Of a DNA stretch of 64,000 nt, positions 12,447 through 62,510 are shown in pieces; position 1 is the first letter of the stretch; the number at the start of each line of letters is the position of its first letter. Origin of the DNA: a virus; the IMG/VR virus record IMGVR_UViG_3300031885_000006, positions 12,890-76,889 of that record. The stretch is one strand, 5' to 3'. The position numbers and the translations under genes are program-made. The notes below the pieces were generated by a model. That model saw nothing but the letters and a program-made list of their open reading frames with translations, did no database searches and had not been told where the DNA came from.

Positions 12447-13147
12447 TAACCCTCCTTGTGTTCCACTACTAATTTACAAAGTTGCTTAAAATACTCTTGT
12501 TCATGATTCCACTTCATGACATTTATGTGTTTATGCACCCATTGCACATTTCCTTTTATATATCCCATATTAGAATCAATTCGATCTAAAGATGGAAAAT
12601 CACCATCTTCAACCTTATTTGGAAATGGAATGTCTAGCCCTGTCAAAGCACATTTCCCATTTTGTTTTTCATACAATTCCCAAGCATAATCTATTTCTAT
12701 TAAAAATGGCAAAGAACGACTTTTTCTTTTTGCGTTGTTTTTAATCCGTTTCCAACATGTTCCGCTCAATTGTCCGCAACCGCTCCAATTACAATTATTC
12801 GAACTCATATTAAAACAATATTTACACTTTTTGATTCTTTCAACCAACAACCAAGTTTGTCTTATTTTAGACTGATTTCCGCAATCACATTCACACAGCC
12901 ACATAACTCTATTCCAATTACACTTACCATCCTTTTCTATTAATGGCATGATAACAGTCCAATTTTCTATTTTTAAACCTTTTAAATTATCTTTAATTTT
13001 TATTCTTGGAGTGTAACGCCTAATTATCCCTAATTTTTGCAAATGTCTTTGCAGGGTAGTTTTTGGGATATTGTTTAAAACTCCAGATTCCTTTATTGTC
13101 AAACCAGATTGATAATCTAATACTGCTTTTTCAAAATTTTTATTCAT
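12446..13147 (-). CDS. HNH-type homing endonuclease
   Basis: N-terminal HTH, WLCECDCGN, KCALTG and SLDRIDSNMGYIKGNVQWVHKHINVMK. Confidence 0.8.
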   Translation of the reverse strand: MNKNFEKAVLDYQSGLTIKESGVLNNIPKTTLQRHLQKLGIIRRYTPRIKIKDNLKGLKIENWTVIMPLIEKDGKCNWNRVMWLCECDCGNQSKIRQTWLLVERIKKCKYCFNMSSNNCNWSGCGQLSGTCWKRIKNNAKRKSRSLPFLIEIDYAWELYEKQNGKCALTGLDIPFPNKVEDGDFPSLDRIDSNMGYIKGNVQWVHKHINVMKWNHEQEYFKQLCKLVVEHKEG

Positions 13148-49178: not shown

Positions 49179-50411
49179 TTATTCCAAATGATTTGTTTTA
49201 ACTGCGGATTGTAAAAATGAAAAATCGGTATGAGGTGCCCAATAAGCGTACTTCCAACTGATACCGTGCATCAATACTATTTTGATCATTAAATGTTGGA
49301 CATCAAATAGCTTAGCAGCAAGTATTGAAAAACTACTATCTGCTCCGATGAAATACTTGCCTTTTTTTAGGATCTCGATAGATTCAAAAATGTCAGTTTG
49401 GCCAGAGCAATCAATAATACTAGGATGGTCAGGAACTGGTTCTCGTTTGTCGTTTAAGACCACGCCTGTTATTTTCTTTCGTTCTAGAAACCGTATGACT
49501 TCTTCCCAATCAGATGTCAATAAATTCCTAGAAACGCCTTCATAAATACTGCCATCTAGATTCCTAAAATTGCTCGATGCATAAGGACAAATTACAACAT
49601 ATTCTATGGGAAGGTCAATACTAATATCTGATAATTTATAATTTAACCAACTTGATTTATTATAAGCCACATGTCCAGCAGCGAATTGCGGGAAAATTGT
49701 AAATATTCCAAAATCAACAGCATTTAAAAACTCTGGATGGTCCGACTGGCAATCCGCCTTATTTGCAATATAAGGTCGTTCGCTAAAATCATCCCATACC
49801 ACAACATGCTTTTTTATGTTGTAACAAGGCAGAACCGAAAATAACTTTTGCAATACCTGCGATTGCTTGGTCGCATAACAAATAGTTTCTATGTTTGATT
49901 TAATGTCGTCGCTTAGAAAACTATCAATTGCAAAAATATCACCAATGCCGCCAGTAAGAAAAATAGACTTAGCATTTAAATCTATTTTTGGAACTTTCTC
50001 ATGACAATGACACTTGGCATCGCAACCAATTACTTGAATGTTGCCCACAGCAAACAATTCTGCCAAGTCATTAATTCCCACCTCGGCAAAACCATATTTG
50101 AAATCTGGATGCGTGTATTTTCCACCATATTGATGCACTTTGTTATCAAATGTGCCAAATGTAGTTTTTTTACACGCAAAGACAACTTCAAAATAATTTT
50201 GCCCTGGCACTTTATGGGCAGTCGCCGCAAAGAGGACGCCTGATCTTATGTATTCTACAAGATAAGTTGAGTATAATTGTCCATTTTCATCCAATGGAAT
50301 TAAATAAAAGCCAGATCGCTCTGGCTTTTCTATTTTCAAAATACATTGATTGGGATCATCGCCCTCCACCATATAATACATATATGGATAATTATAACAA
50401 TATCCGTCCAT
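49179..50411 (-). CDS. Glycosyltransferase family 9-like, with N-terminal extension
   Basis: GGIGD, ICPYAS, D.SGQT and FIGADSS..ILAA. Confidence 0.6.
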   Translation of the reverse strand: MDGYCYNYPYMYYMVEGDDPNQCILKIEKPERSGFYLIPLDENGQLYSTYLVEYIRSGVLFAATAHKVPGQNYFEVVFACKKTTFGTFDNKVHQYGGKYTHPDFKYGFAEVGINDLAELFAVGNIQVIGCDAKCHCHEKVPKIDLNAKSIFLTGGIGDIFAIDSFLSDDIKSNIETICYATKQSQVLQKLFSVLPCYNIKKHVVVWDDFSERPYIANKADCQSDHPEFLNAVDFGIFTIFPQFAAGHVAYNKSSWLNYKLSDISIDLPIEYVVICPYASSNFRNLDGSIYEGVSRNLLTSDWEEVIRFLERKKITGVVLNDKREPVPDHPSIIDCSGQTDIFESIEILKKGKYFIGADSSFSILAAKLFDVQHLMIKIVLMHGISWKYAYWAPHTDFSFLQSAVKTNHLE

Positions 50412-52870
50412 TAAACCTCTTGTGTAGATACTTTAGCTACTTTAACTACAGATTCATGATCATCTAATTTAACTATTTTAACACCACTCGTAGTGCGTCC
50501 CGTCTCTCTAATATCTTGTAAGTCTATTCTAATGCATTTGCCACTTGAAGTAAGTGCAAGCAATGAATCTCCCTTCGATACAGCACATGCCCCAATTATA
50601 TCCCCATTTTTAACTAAAGTTTGCTTTTTAATTACAGAATAGCCTTTGACATTTTTATTGGTCAAAGCACGATATTCTTTTGCAGAAGTCCTCTTGGCAA
50701 AACCGCCACTTGTAACCACCAATACATCTGGCGTGTCCTTAACTTCTAGTGTAAACACCTGAGCCACTGTATCATCCAAATCTAAACGCATTGCACGACT
50801 ACCTCTTGTCGTCCGACCTTGGATCGGAACGATCTTCTCGTTGTATCTCACACACTGCCCCTTAGCAGTGACGATAAATACATCCTTTTTGCCATCCGTC
50901 ACACAAGCAAATGCTACTTGGTCGCCCATCCCCAATTGAATAGCGGCAATGCCACTGTTCTTTCTGATGGTGTTGTATTCTTTAATCTCGCTCTTTTTAA
51001 TCACACCGTTCGTAGTGACAATCACTAAATAACCAGATTCATCAATGCTTTTGATGCTAACCATGTTGGTCACAAATTCACCAGCAGCAAGATTCAACAT
51101 ATTGCTGGCGTGCAATCCCTTGCCAGTCTTAGACCCCTGAGGAATCTCATAAGCCTTACGTTGATACAAAATGCCAAGATTGGTAAAGAACAACACCAAA
51201 CTTTTGCTGTTGGCTTCAAACATTTCAAAAATGTTTTCTGGCTTATCCGACTTGCTCACAGCTATTGAACCGGCTCCACCACGAGCTTGAAGCTTATAGC
51301 TATCCAAAGATACAGACTTCACATACCCGTCGCCAGTAAGCGATATCAATAATTGCTCGTCTTTGACCAAATCCTCATCGGCAATATCTTCTGCATCTCC
51401 GACTATTTGGGTGCGACGATCATCACCCAACTTCTTGGCAAGCTCTTCCTGCTCCTGCACAATCAACTTCAATATTTCAGATGTATCTTTTAATATGCTG
51501 TTCAACCATTTAATTCTGTCAGTGAGTTTATTTAACTCATCAACAAGCTTGTTGACCTCTAATTTTGACAGTTGTCTCAACGTCAAAGCCAAAACGGCTT
51601 TCGCCTGCTCAACAGTTTTTACATATTTTTTAGATAGCAAATCCTCTTCTGGATTATCCGAACTTCTAATTAATTTGATAACAGCATCCAGAACATCAAA
51701 GATGCCAATCAAACCTTCCAAAATGTGAATTCTATTTTTAGCACGAGTCAATTCCGCCGTGTACTTGTTGGTCAGCATTAACTTTCTGTGATCAACAAAC
51801 GCCGAAACCAACTCCAATAAATTGGCATCTGGAACTACCTTGCCATCAACAAGCACAGTGTGATTTACAGCAATCTTCTTTCTCAAACAAGTCTGCTTGA
51901 GAAGCTGATTCAAAACCAGATTTGGATTGCCGCTCTTGGCAATGTAAATAACAACCCTAATGCCCGTCTTCTTTGAAGACAGATTTTTCAAATCAGAAAT
52001 GCCAGTTATGACTTCGTCGTCAACTAGCTTCTTAATTTGAGTGCATAATTGATCTGGGCTGATTTGATAAGGCAATTCAGTAACTACAATCGAATTGCCT
52101 TTGCCATCTCGCTCTATAGCATACGTGCCTTCAAGTGTTATCTTGCCATGACCTGTCTTGTAATAATCAATAACACCCTGTCTTCCTAAAATTTTTCCTC
52201 CTGAAGGAAAATCAGGACCGGGCATAATTTTGACTAATTTTTCACAAGTGACATCGGGGTTCTCAATGTACTTTTTAATGACGGCCACAACTTCTCGATG
52301 GTTGTGGGGCAAGATCTTTGTCGCCCAACCAACCGCCACGCCTTCTGAGCCGTTAACCAATAAATTAGGCAACATCGACGGAAGAATAGTGGGCTCTTTA
52401 CGTTTTTCATTGTAATTTAAAACATAAGGAACCACATCTTCAGACAAATCCGCAAGCATCGCTTCTCCGAAACGAGAAAGCTTTGCCTCGGTATATCGCA
52501 TAGCGGCTGGAGGGTCGCCGTCAACATTACCGAAATTACCCTGGCCAATCAAAAGAGGATATCGCAGAGCCCATGACTGCACCATGCGGTACATCGTCGG
52601 GTAAACAACAGCTTCGCCATGTGGATGATAATTTCCACTGATGTCACCGCAAATTTTAGCCGACTTTTCTGTGGCTCCATTTGCTGTTAATCCCAAATCA
52701 TTAATGGCGATCAACACTCGACGCTGAGATGGCTTCAAACCATCTCGAACGTCAGGTAGAGCCCGTTGCTCTAGCGTCATGAAAGCATACAACGTAAATC
52801 TTGAATCAAGAACTGTCGCCAGTTCTTCCTCAGACATAAGTTGATCTGCGGTGTCTAATTTTTTCGCCAT
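50411..52870 (-). CDS. gyrA: DNA gyrase subunit A
   Basis: ALPDVRDGLKP, YHPHGE, AAMRYTE, GPDFP and a beta-pinwheel CTD with GyrA-box-like QARGGAG. Confidence 0.95.
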   Translation of the reverse strand: MAKKLDTADQLMSEEELATVLDSRFTLYAFMTLEQRALPDVRDGLKPSQRRVLIAINDLGLTANGATEKSAKICGDISGNYHPHGEAVVYPTMYRMVQSWALRYPLLIGQGNFGNVDGDPPAAMRYTEAKLSRFGEAMLADLSEDVVPYVLNYNEKRKEPTILPSMLPNLLVNGSEGVAVGWATKILPHNHREVVAVIKKYIENPDVTCEKLVKIMPGPDFPSGGKILGRQGVIDYYKTGHGKITLEGTYAIERDGKGNSIVVTELPYQISPDQLCTQIKKLVDDEVITGISDLKNLSSKKTGIRVVIYIAKSGNPNLVLNQLLKQTCLRKKIAVNHTVLVDGKVVPDANLLELVSAFVDHRKLMLTNKYTAELTRAKNRIHILEGLIGIFDVLDAVIKLIRSSDNPEEDLLSKKYVKTVEQAKAVLALTLRQLSKLEVNKLVDELNKLTDRIKWLNSILKDTSEILKLIVQEQEELAKKLGDDRRTQIVGDAEDIADEDLVKDEQLLISLTGDGYVKSVSLDSYKLQARGGAGSIAVSKSDKPENIFEMFEANSKSLVLFFTNLGILYQRKAYEIPQGSKTGKGLHASNMLNLAAGEFVTNMVSIKSIDESGYLVIVTTNGVIKKSEIKEYNTIRKNSGIAAIQLGMGDQVAFACVTDGKKDVFIVTAKGQCVRYNEKIVPIQGRTTRGSRAMRLDLDDTVAQVFTLEVKDTPDVLVVTSGGFAKRTSAKEYRALTNKNVKGYSVIKKQTLVKNGDIIGACAVSKGDSLLALTSSGKCIRIDLQDIRETGRTTSGVKIVKLDDHESVVKVAKVSTQEV

Positions 52871-54257: not shown

Positions 54258-55046
54258 TTATATAGTATTGATATTTTTTAAATTTTGATGAAATAATTCA
54301 ACAAAATTATGATCATCAGGTTTGCGGAGATTAAGCCAATTCATCGCAATATAACTCGCAAACCAACCCTTGGTCATTGATGTAATCAAAAGCTTACATG
54401 CTCTCTTATAAGCTACACTTCTGCTTGTCCTAAAATCCAAAGGAATTAAAAATCTCTCCAAGGCTGTAACGTAGATTTCTTCTCTACATAGTTTCAATTG
54501 GTCATCATAAGAAAGATCTAAAAACATGTTGTGATCAAGCATTGCAGAAGAACGATCTTTCTTTAACTTCTCAAACATAGGCTCATTATAATACGCAACC
54601 GCCCGATGGATGTCATCATGAACATATTTTCTATCAACTTTATCTTTAAAAAAATCATCATTTGTTTTCTTTAAGCAAGCACGTTTGCTTCCATGCAGCA
54701 AAGCCCAATCTTTATACAATTGTTTGAATAATTCGCAATCCAATGTGACATTGTTTTTTTGAAAAAACAAAATGTCAAACATTGTTTTTTCCCAATTAAT
54801 ATCCCAAAAACAATGCGACAATTTCAACGTATAAAGCTGTGATGGTGTTGCCACCTCTTCATTCTCATCAAATATACGACGTATGCCCACACCATTGTTG
54901 CAATTATGATATTCCACACCACTTTCATGATACGACAAATCATCAATCAAATAATCAACATCTTTCGATTCACGAAAATCTGGAAAATGTTGTTTGGCTG
55001 CCACCGAGCCAATCAAAACTAATTTCAAACCGTGTGAAGATTTCAT
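54258..55046 (-). CDS. Phage protein with nucleotidyltransferase-like N-terminus
   Basis: LIGS.A....DFR..KDVD (GS..DxD), LK.SH, HDDIH, ALERF and KGWF. Confidence 0.55.
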   Translation of the reverse strand: MKSSHGLKLVLIGSVAAKQHFPDFRESKDVDYLIDDLSYHESGVEYHNCNNGVGIRRIFDENEEVATPSQLYTLKLSHCFWDINWEKTMFDILFFQKNNVTLDCELFKQLYKDWALLHGSKRACLKKTNDDFFKDKVDRKYVHDDIHRAVAYYNEPMFEKLKKDRSSAMLDHNMFLDLSYDDQLKLCREEIYVTALERFLIPLDFRTSRSVAYKRACKLLITSMTKGWFASYIAMNWLNLRKPDDHNFVELFHQNLKNINTI

Positions 55047-56965
55047 TGCTTAATCACACTATTGACTTGATTGATAATATGTTTCTTACGAGGTGCGGCA
55101 TCAGTGCCCATCAAAACAGACACAATATGCTCTGAATTACCAGGATCGTTAATCTGCAATTGAATTAAACGTCTAACATCCGGCTGCATTGTCGTTTCCG
55201 CCAATTGCTCTGCATCCATTTCACCCAAACCTTTAAATCGCACAACCTTGGACTTAGCATGTTTCTTTGTTTCAGCTTGCATTTCCTCGTTGGTCCAACA
55301 ATACTTTTTAACCTTGCCAACCTCTACACAAAAAAGTGGCGGCTGAGCCAAATAAACATGACCACCCGCTACCAATGGCCGCATATACCGATAGAAAAAA
55401 GTCAACAATAAAGTGGCAATGTGACAACCATCCACGTCAGCATCCGCCATGATAATTACTTTATTATATCTCAATTTATCTAAATTGAAGTCATCTTTAA
55501 TTCCAGTCCCAATGGCAATAATTAAAGATACAATTTCTTTGTTATTTAACAAATCAGAAACATCATTCTTTTCGGCATTAATCACCTTGCCACGAACCGG
55601 AAGAATGGCTTGTATTTCTGGGTCTCTGCCGTCTTTCGCACTACCTGCCGCCGAATCACCTTCAACTATAAAAAGCTCTGACAATTCTTTTTTCTCAGTG
55701 TTACAATCATACAACTTTCCAGGCATACGATTGTTTTTGCCAAGAATGCCTTTTCTTTTAATTAATTCAGATGTCTTTTTAGCTGCTGTTCTGGCCTCTT
55801 GTGCCAGCAATGCTCTTTCAACGATCTTCTTTAAAACGCCAGCATTCTTATCAAAATAGCTGGTCAATAGATTTATCGTTAAATTGCTAACTACGGTTTC
55901 AACTTCGACGCTTCCCAATTTAGATTTTGTTTGAGATACAAATTCTGGTCTAGGAAATCGAATGCTGATAATGGCAACCAATCCCTCTCTGACATCGTCG
56001 CCATTTAAATTTGTGCCATTATCTTTAATTAATTTGTGTTGACGAGCAAAATTGTTAATCACCCTTGTCAATGCAGTTTTGAATCCGCTGACATGGGTGC
56101 CACCGTCGCTGGTAATAATGTTATTGACAAATGACAAAATGGATTCATCATCTTCTTCAGAATAGACCAAGGCAATTTGCACACCACATTGCCCAGAACG
56201 AGAAGTTAAATCTACTTTGCCTTCTCCATAAATTACATCAGTGGGATATAAGCCAGCTTTGCCTTGACACAAAAATTTTGTGTAATCAGCAATGCCGCCA
56301 GTATAATAAAATGTTTCTTTAAAATTAGTGGCTTGATTAACGTAATTAAGTTTCAAACCACGATTCAAGAAAGCCATTTCTCTAATTCGACGCACAATCC
56401 AATTATCATCTATTTTTGGATTATTTTTAAATACAGATGGATCAGCATGCCATGTTATTTTGGTGCCCGTTTTACCTTTTTTGCATTCTGATATTTTAGA
56501 AACTTTACTGGTGGGCTTGCCTGCCGAATAAGTTTGACGCCACAAATAACCTTCTCGAAACACTTCTGCCGTCAAGCTATCTGAAAGGGCATTTACGCAA
56601 CTAGCACCAACACCATGCAAACCGCCAGAAGCTTCATAGGTTCCGCCGCTTTCATTAAATTTACCACCGGCATGCAAGGTGGTCATAACTAATTCTAAAG
56701 CGGATTTCTTTTCTGTTGGATGTAGATCAACTGGAATTCCACGACCGTTATCTTCTACAGAAACAGTCTCTCCATCTTTATCGACATTAAGCCAAATTTC
56801 AGTACAATGGCCAGCCATCGCCTCATCGATAGAATTATCAATGATTTCCCAAACAAGATGGTGCAAGCCTTTGCGGTCTGTATCGCCAACATACATGCCG
56901 GGATTTTTACGTACAGCTTCCAAGCCCTTCAAAACAGAAATTTGAGATGCGTTATAGTTATCCAT
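55043..56965 (-). CDS. gyrB: DNA gyrase subunit B
   Basis: GLEAVRKNPGMY, EIIDNSIDE, DNGRGIP, LHAGGKF, GLHGVG, VEGDSA, DADVDG and FKGLGEM. Confidence 0.96.
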   Translation of the reverse strand: MDNYNASQISVLKGLEAVRKNPGMYVGDTDRKGLHHLVWEIIDNSIDEAMAGHCTEIWLNVDKDGETVSVEDNGRGIPVDLHPTEKKSALELVMTTLHAGGKFNESGGTYEASGGLHGVGASCVNALSDSLTAEVFREGYLWRQTYSAGKPTSKVSKISECKKGKTGTKITWHADPSVFKNNPKIDDNWIVRRIREMAFLNRGLKLNYVNQATNFKETFYYTGGIADYTKFLCQGKAGLYPTDVIYGEGKVDLTSRSGQCGVQIALVYSEEDDESILSFVNNIITSDGGTHVSGFKTALTRVINNFARQHKLIKDNGTNLNGDDVREGLVAIISIRFPRPEFVSQTKSKLGSVEVETVVSNLTINLLTSYFDKNAGVLKKIVERALLAQEARTAAKKTSELIKRKGILGKNNRMPGKLYDCNTEKKELSELFIVEGDSAAGSAKDGRDPEIQAILPVRGKVINAEKNDVSDLLNNKEIVSLIIAIGTGIKDDFNLDKLRYNKVIIMADADVDGCHIATLLLTFFYRYMRPLVAGGHVYLAQPPLFCVEVGKVKKYCWTNEEMQAETKKHAKSKVVRFKGLGEMDAEQLAETTMQPDVRRLIQLQINDPGNSEHIVSVLMGTDAAPRKKHIINQVNSVIKQ

Positions 56966-57045
56966 GTATTTCCCTAAAAATGAATTGGGTGAATGCACAC
57001 CCTACCATATACATCGTAACTTGTAAAGCTATACTTTAGCGGCAC

Positions 57046-58440: not shown

Positions 58441-58476
58441 AAACTCCGCTCAGATACATGTATCTGAGCGGAGTTT
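58441..58476 (-). terminator. tmRNA terminator (perfect 36-bp palindrome)
   Basis: aaactccgctcagatacatgtatctgagcggagttt, followed by a U-tract on the minus strand. Confidence 0.85.
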
Positions 58477-58478
58477 AG

Positions 58479-59064
58479 TGGAGCCGAGGGGAGTCGATAT
58501 TCCCCACACCTATTACTAGGTGAATGGACTATATCATTGCCATAGCTTTTCAGCCTTAGGCATCGGGCGCTTATCTGGTTATTAAGAGGGCTAAACCTCT
58601 CCAGTAGTCTCTACACCTTCCTGCGATGTATCGCAAGCTTGGCTCGGTATTGCCCCAGAGGGGTTTCACCGAATTCACCCAATATTTTTTTCTAAACCTT
58701 TCGATTTAGATGGGCTCGACTTCCGAACCCCTTTCCAGAATAACTTGTAAAAAGACCTCTACATGCTTGTCTTATTGTTTTTGCTTTCGCATCTCGCCAT
58801 TCGTGTCCACATAAAGCTAAGGACAATTCACAGCCAGCAGAATCTTTGTCTCGTTTAGGTATCTCTGCGTGAACCTAAACCAGCCGGATTTTTTTTCAGG
58901 TTTTCAAGACGCTACCAGCATCGCTTCTATCAACCTGTCGCCACCTTAAGCAGCGAGAGCTAGAGTGTTGCCTGTTAAGGCTTGAACGATTTTTAAAGCG
59001 GCCCTTCGTTCAACCGCTGCATGCCATCTATCTACTGCATTACCTGTCGATGCCTGACGGCCCC
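58479..59064 (-). ncRNA. ssrA: tmRNA, intron-interrupted; tag peptide (A)GNTLALAA
   Basis: Acceptor stem GGGGCCG/CGGCUCC-A with G3:U; T-arm AGGGG-UUCGACU-CCCCU after intron removal; pk1-like knot; tag frame 58972-58946 ends LAA-UAA; 357 nt spliced; CCA not fully encoded. Confidence 0.93.
58498..58726 (-). mobile_element. ORF-less group I intron (229 nt) in the tmRNA T-loop
   Basis: P1 GGGUUCG/CGAGCCC with U:G; P/Q AAUUCGGUGAAAC..AAUACCGAGC; P7 GAGACUA/UAGUCC; P3 GGGUG/CGCCC; P9 CACCUA-GUAA-UAGGUG. Confidence 0.9.
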
Positions 59065-60118: not shown

Positions 60119-61093
60119 ATGTTCAAAAAGTTCACAAGTTATATTGAAGAGAGAAAAGAAGGCGTAGACGCCAAAGGTGGTTTGGTCGGATCGCCAAAAG
60201 TTAAATTGGTTGCCGATTACGACGGACCAGATCCCAAAAGCCCAACCAAAGGCCAAGGCCAGGGCGAACTATCTCCTTATAAGTCTGCCAATGGCAATGC
60301 GGCTGCCAAGGGTGCCGAAAAAGGTGGATTTGCTGATATGGGTGACGGCAAACTAAAATACGAACCAGATATGAAGGCTGGAGCTTCTAAATTGTCTGCT
60401 TTAGGTAAAGAACTTGGTGGAGATTGGCCAAAAAACAAAATGCCTAAAACAGAACATTTCTTGAACAAGACCAGCAAAATGTCTGCCAGCCAATTCGCCA
60501 AGTATATGATGAAAGAAAATACTTGTGATAATGATGCCATTAGATACATCGTCGCTCTAGCCGGTCAAAATCCTAGAGTTGTCGAACATTTGGTTCATGA
60601 AATGCGACGAGCCAATATTCTTGGCGAAATGTTGAAAGCTTCTTTAGAATTTCCAGAAGCTTATCAAGAATTGACAATTCTATTCGGTGATAATGAAGGC
60701 GAAAGACGTGCTAATCGTCTTGCCAGAGCAATGGCCGAAGCTGTTGGCCCTCCTATGGGCATCGGCAATAATGGCGATGCTAATTTTGATGGCGAACAAG
60801 ATATGGATGATGAAAAAGTCGAACCATCGGAAGATGACGAGGAAGGTCATCCAGATGATGAAACCGATCCTGACGAAGAACATGACGACACCGATGAAGA
60901 CGGCGACGATAGCGACGGCGATGAAAATGGAGATGAAGACGAATATTCAGATGATGAAGATGGATCTGATCCATTTGGCAAAGAAGATGAAGCTCCTGAA
61001 CAAGATGGCAATCCAATGAAGAAGAAAATGCCTCATGAGCATTTAAAAGATGCTCTTCAAAGAGCCTTCATGAAAGCCTTCATGAATAAGTAA
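60119..61093 (+). CDS. Hypothetical protein with long acidic tract, probable head-associated protein
   Basis: MFKKFTSYIEE N-terminus; D/E-rich C-terminal third. Confidence 0.65.
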   Translation: MFKKFTSYIEERKEGVDAKGGLVGSPKVKLVADYDGPDPKSPTKGQGQGELSPYKSANGNAAAKGAEKGGFADMGDGKLKYEPDMKAGASKLSALGKELGGDWPKNKMPKTEHFLNKTSKMSASQFAKYMMKENTCDNDAIRYIVALAGQNPRVVEHLVHEMRRANILGEMLKASLEFPEAYQELTILFGDNEGERRANRLARAMAEAVGPPMGIGNNGDANFDGEQDMDDEKVEPSEDDEEGHPDDETDPDEEHDDTDEDGDDSDGDENGDEDEYSDDEDGSDPFGKEDEAPEQDGNPMKKKMPHEHLKDALQRAFMKAFMNK

Positions 61094-61124: not shown

Positions 61125-62510
61125 CTAAAACGGACATTCTTCCACTGTGCCTTTTTCTGTTTCTATATAAATAGGATCTGAAGTCCATTTATACCTCATG
61201 GTTTTACCACCACGAGCAGGACTTAAAAATCTAGAAAACAATAAATCATGTTTAATTGGATCTACATCATGAATTTTAAGGCAATAGGCCACTAAAGAAC
61301 CACCAATACTGCCTCGCCCAGGACCAACAGCTTCTGAGCCGTCGCCCCAGCCCAAAAGGCGAGGACAAGCCCGTCTGGCTTCATCAGTCATTTTCTTTTG
61401 AATTAGAAAATAAGAAGAAAATCCTTTTTGGATAATAAGCGATAGCTCTTCCTGCAATCGCATTATATATTCTTTAGTTCTAGGAAGGGCTCTTTGATCA
61501 AAACCAGTGATTACAAAATCTGTTAATTTTGCATCAGCATCTGGAATAATGGGCAACTTATTAGATCTGTCTAATTGAACGCCTTTAGCTTTTTGACAAA
61601 TGGCGACTGTATTGCGTTTGGCCTGTTTCAACAGTTCATAATCAATAACATCGCTATAATTCGATTTCCACTTGGCATCAATTTCTTCTTCGGATTTATA
61701 CCATAGATTTTGATCCTGAAGCTCGAACATATCGGCTGTTTCGTCTTCATCAAGTGCTTTTTGAATATCTTGAATTGTCTTTCCTGTTTGAACCATAAGC
61801 ATTAATCTCTGCATATGGCTATCTTCTTTCAAACAATAATGACAATCAGTTGTCACAACTAAAGGCAACTTATATTTTTCATGGGCTTTCAAAATGAAAA
61901 CATTATATGGTTTTTGTTTTACAAAATCCAACAGCATAAATTCAAGATAGAAATTATCCCCAAACATCTCCATATATTTTTCAATCATAGGAAATGCCAA
62001 TTCCTCTCCACCCCGATCAAATGCTTGACCGATTTCGCCATTATAGCAACAAGAAGTAAATGTAATTCCTTCCTTGTATTTCAATAATTGCTCATGATTA
62101 ACTCTAGGCTTATAGTAAAACCCTTTGGTCCAACCCCAAGAAGATAGTTTAACTAAATTAGAATAACCAATTTCATTATGGGCGATGGCCAGCAAATGAT
62201 TAGATTTTCTATATAGTTTCTTTTCTTCTGGCGAGAGGTGTTTGGCAAAATCGCCACCAGCTTCACCTTCTTTTAGTTCTGGTTGCATGGGGTTTACATA
62301 TAATTCACATCCAAATATAGGATTGATTTTATTTTCTTCACAAGCTCTGATCTGGCGTGGGATTGCTCCCATCACGCCGTGATCAGTAACACAGAGAAAT
62401 TGTTGATTTATTTGTTTAGCTCGTTTTGCATATTCCTCAATTTTAGCATACCCATCGAGAAGGCTGAAATCTGTATGTGTATGCAAATTTTCGTAACCTG
62501 TAATTTCCAC
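61125..62510 (-). CDS. dnaE: DNA polymerase III alpha, N-terminal piece (PHP domain and start of palm)
   Basis: LHTHTDFSLLDG, VTDHG, GCE, FYYKPR, TDCHY, GPGRGS.GGSLVAY.L.I..VDP...LLFSRFL; ends before the PDxDxD motif. Confidence 0.93.
   Translation of the reverse strand: MEITGYENLHTHTDFSLLDGYAKIEEYAKRAKQINQQFLCVTDHGVMGAIPRQIRACEENKINPIFGCELYVNPMQPELKEGEAGGDFAKHLSPEEKKLYRKSNHLLAIAHNEIGYSNLVKLSSWGWTKGFYYKPRVNHEQLLKYKEGITFTSCCYNGEIGQAFDRGGEELAFPMIEKYMEMFGDNFYLEFMLLDFVKQKPYNVFILKAHEKYKLPLVVTTDCHYCLKEDSHMQRLMLMVQTGKTIQDIQKALDEDETADMFELQDQNLWYKSEEEIDAKWKSNYSDVIDYELLKQAKRNTVAICQKAKGVQLDRSNKLPIIPDADAKLTDFVITGFDQRALPRTKEYIMRLQEELSLIIQKGFSSYFLIQKKMTDEARRACPRLLGWGDGSEAVGPGRGSIGGSLVAYCLKIHDVDPIKHDLLFSRFLSPARGGKTMRYKWTSDPIYIETEKGTVEECPF

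Follow-up and report, generated by a model that had tools for sequence, protein, structure and literature searches.

The 23S rRNA intron Cbu.L1917 of Coxiella burnetii, which Raghavan et al. (2007) are said to have described as lacking the canonical terminal guanosine of group I introns (omega-G), reportedly ends in A and self-splices, and we know of no omega-G sister at its site. The first-pass annotation of the DNA studied here had named this intron, along with introns in the T-loop of tmRNA genes, as prior knowledge, which is right as far as it goes but leaves out an omega-A intron of hexacorals. This intron, the mitochondrial ND5-717, also has A as its last base, and exon ligation is correct in vivo (PMC8146996, PMC6545197); its splicing is less efficient than that of an omega-G intron of the same genome, and no circles were seen (PMC6545197). 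Its authors suggest that an A at omega keeps circularisation and hydrolysis at the 3' splice site in check (PMC8146996). Introns known to end in A have been admitted to group I (PMC8146996), and so omega-G can be regarded as near-universal and not as strictly defining.

A catalogue of intron-form tmRNA genes interrupted in the T-loop lists 883 unique sequences, which span 21 phyla and fall on four subsites (PMC11915505), a far wider range than the "some Clostridia" from which the first-pass annotation knew them. Subsite 2 accounts for 22 genes, 21 of them from Chloroflexota and one from Myxococcota, and all 883 sequences are reported to obey a boundary rule of U at the last position of the 5' exon, U(-1), and omega-G at the end of the intron, save 15 with C(-1) (PMC11915505).

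Here we describe a 64,000-nt stretch (hereafter the window; positions 12,890 to 76,889 of IMG/VR virus record IMGVR_UViG_3300031885_000006) on which a huge phage most probably carries a functional tmRNA gene, interrupted between nucleotides 1 and 2 of the T-loop by an ORF-less IA-type group I intron. The novelty lies in the combination of a conserved omega-A clade within phage tmRNA genes and a sister at the same site that ends in G; each element, the omega-A intron and the T-loop tmRNA intron, was known before, and no new principle is involved. The clade resides in a stable RNA, not in an mRNA or rRNA.

Judged by their published description, the subsite 2 introns (PMC11915505) resemble the window intron in their position between T-loop nucleotides 1 and 2, in the P1 wobble at U(-1) and in the restoration of a 7-nt loop, and it differs from them in its omega A and in being carried by a phage. 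ND5-717, an organellar intron of giant size that itself carries genes, interrupts a protein gene, and its sequence context is unrelated to that of the window. Cbu.L1917 is likewise a group I intron of the bacterial world that reportedly lacks omega-G, but it occupies an rRNA site, belongs to a different subgroup and is confined to a single lineage. As host genes and subgroups differ, common descent with Cbu.L1917 or ND5-717 is unlikely. Among phage introns, those of T7-like polymerase genes share a P3-P6 core that is 93-98% identical to that of the window over 43 nt, and phage IA introns in general (T7-like DNA polymerase; T4 td and nrdB type) have the same P7.1/P7.2 insert; unlike the window intron, these lie in protein genes and end in G wherever the position of P9.0 allows the end to be read.

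An interrupted tmRNA gene from a very large phage

The stretch is contained in DNA runs from sediment metagenomes, and the locus lies on its minus strand. The viral record is 76.9 kb long with a CheckV completeness of 15%, and is thus a piece of a very large phage. On the raw, unspliced window ARAGORN found no tmRNA, and Rfam broke the gene into two partial matches, one to the tmRNA model RF00023 (59057-58733, minus, 62.1 bits, E 7e-22) and, adjoining it, one to the group I intron model RF00028. The published U(-1)/omega-G boundary rule cannot place this intron, and genes of this kind will thus be missed or mis-mapped. BLAST against GenBank phages gave matches covering 7-13% of the query, none of which spanned the whole tmRNA gene, and the matches in annotated phages fell within endonuclease VII or DNA polymerase genes. 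The features of the locus are collected in Table 1.

Table 1. Features predicted at the tmRNA locus and its surroundings, in window coordinates.
Feature	Positions	Strand	Basis or remark
tmRNA gene, intron-form, complete, 586 nt	58479..59064	-	RF00023, ARAGORN after in-silico splicing, acceptor pairing
5' exon of 338 nt, with the 5' strands of the acceptor and of the T-stem (AGGGG for the latter) and, between them, the pseudoknot and tag region	58727..59064	-	
Tag reading frame GGC..UAA, product (A)GNTLALAA*	58946..58972	-	direct reading and homology
Group I intron, 229 nt, IA-type with P7.1/P7.2, ORF-less	58498..58726	-	RF00028 and covariation
P1 hairpin, GGGUUCG (58730-58724) : CGAGCCC (58718-58712)	58712..58730	-	Rfam structure line
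P10, 5' part of internal guide AGUCGA (58721-58716) : 3' exon UCGACU (58497-58492)	58716..58721	-	
P2 with GAAA tetraloop	58692..58709	-	loop in 7/7 sequences
P7 5' strand, G-a-GACUA	58605..58611	-	invariant in 7/7, omega-G relative included
P7.1/P7.2 insertion, P7 to P3'	58575..58604	-	helices 9 and 10 with compensatory changes
P7 3' strand, UAGUCC; C58527 : G58609	58526..58531	-	
P9.0 5' strand, AUUC, directly after P7	58522..58525	-	
P9 hairpin, GUAA loop	58508..58521	-	absent altogether in L081
P9.0 3' strand, GAAU	58499..58502	-	compensatory U-A to C-G in L034
Predicted omega, A, single unpaired base between P9.0 and P10	58498	-	
3' exon, 19 nt: T-loop UCGACU, T-stem CCCCU, acceptor 3' strand, discriminator A	58479..58497	-	
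Intrinsic terminator, 16-bp stem followed by T run	58441..58476	-	
Free-standing HNH/endonuclease VII-like ORF, 207 aa	57836..58459	-	phrog_3322 6e-18, phrog_3118 5e-10

Excision of 58726-58498 in silico gives a 7-nt T-loop, UUCGACU, as the first-pass annotation had predicted, and the joined sequence is GGGGU+UCGACUCCCC, a reading also present in some 60 tmRNA or tRNA-like genes without an intron, which end in the same 19-mer as the 3' exon. After splicing at the omega-A register, ARAGORN called a tmRNA in five of the seven members of the clade described below, the window included. The last base of the 5' exon, the U(-1) at 58727, is the first U of the T-loop. The acceptor stem pairs GGGGCCG (59064-59058) with CGGCUCC (58486-58480), including a G3:U70 pair, and is followed by the discriminator A58479, with no CCA encoded in the gene. 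We placed the tag by homology to the ARAGORN resume sites in two relatives, L089 and L214, and the call that ARAGORN itself made for the window looks misplaced. Throughout the clade the tags end in ALAA, AMAA or AIAA, and the acceptor stems covary (CCG/CGG, UUG/CAA, UCG/CGA), which suggests that these tmRNAs are under selection; judged from these features, they look functional.

Structure of the intron

The match to RF00028 (Intron_gpI) runs from 58736 to 58506, covers the full model (1-253) and scores 74.2 bits (E 5.5e-17), where the threshold is 50. This score, the wobble in P1, the covarying core and the G-C pair of P7 together mark the locus as a putative group I intron, and the insertion of P7.1/P7.2, a motif common to 16 viral contigs, makes it IA-type. 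P1 is made up of exon GGGU and intron UCG, and its sole wobble, U58727:G58715, places the 5' splice site at 58727|58726. P3 to P6a are regular. P8 contains a CCUAAG/UAUGG receptor-like motif that, by analogy, is likely to be the partner of the GAAA loop of P2.

The guanosine site of P7, which had looked canonical in the first-pass annotation, proved to be so: the pair G58609-C58527 is invariant in all seven sequences, and by analogy it would be the guanosine-binding pair, which we take to correspond to G264-C311 of the Tetrahymena intron. The 207-nt intron of the relative L081 (L081:13098-13336, minus strand) lacks P9 and reads P7, then AUU-UGGGG-AAU-A, then the exon, and for this reason P9 and L9 seem dispensable in the clade. 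A run of GGGG stands just 5' of the P9.0 3' strand in all seven introns (58502-58505 in the window), and its complement, CCCC, occurs in the 3' strand of the T-stem (58488-58491). Before splicing, the precursor could thus form a pseudo T-arm of GGGG, a loop of 10-11 nt and CCCC; the seven introns showed no covariation to back this pairing.

Relatives of the intron and covariation

Pattern scans recovered six distinct relatives (L034, L081, L087, L089, L213 and L214), with the window as the seventh sequence. L034 was recovered identically in three metagenome samples (L208-L210), L089 lies on a 458.8-kb phage contig (IMGVR_UViG_3300023179_000009), and L214 is RXKI01000036.1, a single MAG contig that was binned as Neisseriaceae and has phage-type polymerase and endonuclease genes. 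L034 and L089 come from lakes. Pairwise identities within the clade, over intron and flanks of the seven sequences, are 74-88%. L214 is like the window in its tmRNA type, its subsite and its downstream HNH-like gene, with an intron that is 76-83% identical, and unlike it in its tail, ..AAAAG, in its omega G and in the unpaired base that precedes it.

The structure derived from the window fits this alignment well, as 89.5% of cells are paired over its 66 pairs, compared with 32-45% in slid controls. Compensatory changes occur in 25 of the 66 pairs, a count reached by none of 500 shuffles, and are located in P3, P4, P5, P6a, P7.1/7.2, P8, P9 and P9.0. In a maximum-likelihood tree of the intron core with outgroups, only the clade of L087, L089 and L213 was resolved.

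All members found by scans of viral contigs in which omega was left free, or in which the 5' side only was specified, end in A. The metagenome pattern demanded a T before omega, and variants like L214 may therefore have been missed in metagenomes. An exact 5'-junction pattern gave no match; a loose version gave more than 119 random GC-rich matches, none of which passed the filter, and L088 and L215-L217 fell in coding DNA and matched by chance.

Other introns of the same subfamily were seen outside this clade. The phage that carries L089 has a second one, L086, apparently within a protein-coding region, and by the P9.0 rule L086 apparently ends in G (ACU..AGU-G), while the tmRNA intron of the same phage ends in A. 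On three viral contigs (L073, L075 and L078) such introns lie in the anticodon loop of a tRNA with a long variable arm. If U(-1) (GGGAU|) is combined with the terminal G that lies nearest, these would leave an anticodon loop of 8 nt, and a 7-nt loop requires either a last base other than G or a -1 base other than U; their junction is possibly non-canonical. A further phage contig, L050 (IMGVR_UViG_3300011116_000709), combines a tRNA cluster with a permuted tmRNA (RF04321) and, apart from the latter, a match to group I introns.

The splice register and the terminal A

The sequence TCG is common to the start of the intron and the start of the 3' exon, and in the window this leaves four registers with the same spliced product, one of them ending in G, an ambiguity that the first-pass annotation had already pointed out. 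No register in the window gives U(-1) and omega-G together. The relatives resolve the matter, since the repeat is broken in four of them: the introns of L087, L089 and L213 start with UCA and that of L214 with UCU.

The first-pass annotation had read the register from three pairings in the window, and all three recur across the clade. It had placed the 5' site at GGGGU|UCGG from the U:G pair of P1, and this wobble of the first T-loop U is invariant in all seven sequences; the second T-loop U pairs with A in five and with G in two (L081 and L087). P10, proposed as AGUCGA with UCGACU, is paired in 93% of cells across the seven sequences, and in 19-38% when slid. P9.0, proposed as AUUC with GAAU followed by A58498, ends one base before the 3' exon in every member, with P10 beginning one base after its end, and in L034 the pairing is preserved by a double change from U-A to C-G. 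In introns of the same subfamily in other genes (the L074 group and L086), P9.0 is followed immediately by G. The intron of L214 has the tail ..AAAAG before UCGACU, as against ..AAUA in the window, with a U(-1):G pair and omega-G; together with its UCU start this makes it canonical at subsite 2 and nowhere else, and its G falls in the same alignment column as A58498. The base in this column, for which A had been proposed in the window in place of G, is A in the window, L034, L081, L087, L089 and L213, and G in L214.

The window has U(-1) and, where the boundary rule has G, A58498. On the comparative evidence we consider it likely that the window intron lies after the first T-loop U (subsite 2) and ends in A58498. 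Read from the seven aligned sequences, omega-A is real, and a small group of phage introns that interrupt tmRNA genes at subsite 2 of the T-loop has conserved it.

A different view of the same terminal base is that the intron is a decaying relic that no longer splices, in a dead tmRNA gene, with the A among its inactivating mutations. Changes from omega-G to A are strongly deleterious in model introns, as this view would have it, and the RNA contigs that we recovered lie in exon 1, with no splice joint among them. These contigs, from the RNA runs X7, X8 and X9, cover 58754-59041, with no intron cover or cross-intron joint, and as they lie within exon 1 only they are uninformative on splicing or on the intron ends. 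The A is kept in six sequences of 74-88% identity, compensatory changes are found in nearly every core helix, and the tag frames are intact, the acceptor stems covary and the terminator is present. A dead gene would not have retained the whole set, and we regard decay as unlikely.

We observed separately that, in three metatranscriptome studies, contigs matching this tmRNA or its close relatives stop near the same two points, about 59025 and 58755, and that those of X7 are flanked by Illumina adapter sequence.

The canonical end could also be rescued by shifting the intron to 58723-58495, so that it ends in G58495 and the 5' site follows UUCG, with a -1 base, G58724, that is paired with C. In the window this gives an identical spliced product and an omega that is G, and P1 and a 3-bp P10 (AGU/ACU) can still be drawn. 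Such a site has no U:G wobble, however, and three unpaired bases separate P9.0 from omega. Carried over to L087, L089 and L213, it gives a -1 base that is an A standing unpaired in the loop of P1 and turns the T-loop into UUCAACU, and in L214 it yields UUCUACU although a fully canonical U/G junction is available at subsite 2. We therefore judge the shifted intron to be very improbable.

Placing the splice site after the second U (subsite 3), with an intron that ends in U58497, likewise leaves the product unchanged, and in L081 and L087 the second U is also in a U:G wobble. In the other five sequences, including the window, this U pairs with A; an omega U is no better than an A, P9.0 would be set apart from omega, and L214 is canonical at subsite 2 only, so that there is very little indeed to be said for this site. 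That A58498 stands for a G that was misread in sequencing or assembly has next to no probability, as its sole attraction is the prior rarity of omega-A and the same base stands in an independent DNA run (contig X2, 58447-58585, no differences), in five other distinct sequences and in the identical L034 copies from three samples.

Predicted course of splicing

For the intron that ends in A58498, an external guanosine would attack after U58727, and the 5' exon would then attack the bond after A58498. Since A fits the guanosine pocket poorly, the choice of the 3' site would fall chiefly to P9.0 (3-4 bp) and P10 (5-6 bp). For the same reason, and in parallel with published omega-A introns, the second step would probably be slower than with G, yet sufficient to yield a working T-loop. 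The ligated exons are predicted to read GGGGUUCGACUCCCC, and the spliced tmRNA would consist of the phage exon 1 joined to UCGACUCCCCUCGGCUCCA. The seven-sequence alignment shows no change of the pocket that tracks A versus G in P7, J6/7 or J8/7. Compensation for omega-A by a longer P9.0 was also weighed and set aside as weak, because the omega-G intron L086 pairs its omega-1 base likewise.

One may speculate that a slow second step gates the maturation of the tmRNA. It is conceivable, though rather doubtful, that the terminal A is selected and not merely tolerated, either because it suppresses side reactions that depend on omega-G or because it delays tmRNA maturation during infection. The reactions that would be suppressed are hydrolysis at the 3' splice site, which would waste the 19-nt exon, circularisation, and re-insertion into the tightly paired ligated T-loop. 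The close omega-G relative offers a clean test of the last base where P9.0 and P10 are strong, and L214 on the one side and L087, L213 or the window on the other form a natural A/G pair with shared exon surroundings, ready for the study of its effect.

The downstream HNH-like gene and other genes of the phage

Directly downstream of the tmRNA gene, just past its terminator, lies the HNH-like ORF of Table 1. Homologues with 47-49% amino acid identity occupy the same position in L087 (886-1449), L214 (725-1237) and L081 (12576-13088), and such a gene thus stands next to the intron-bearing tmRNA in four of the seven clade members. From this arrangement, the HNH-like protein may mobilise the ORF-less intron as a partner in collaborative homing.

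The phage fragment also has gyrB, gyrA and a gene similar to PolIII-alpha. The GyrA and GyrB homologues are full-length (50411-52870 and 55043-56998 of the window, minus strand). The polymerase gene is apparently in pieces, both in the window (61125-62510, minus strand, and 60119-61093, plus strand) and in L214 (1801-6014). In the window, the fragment that ends at 61125 is 461 aa long, comprises a PHP domain and the beginning of the NTPase domain, and adjoins an ORF of 324 aa on the opposite strand that has no family match. In L214, an endonuclease ORF is flanked by two pieces of the polymerase, and the split gene could reflect the insertion of an intein, an intron or a homing endonuclease.
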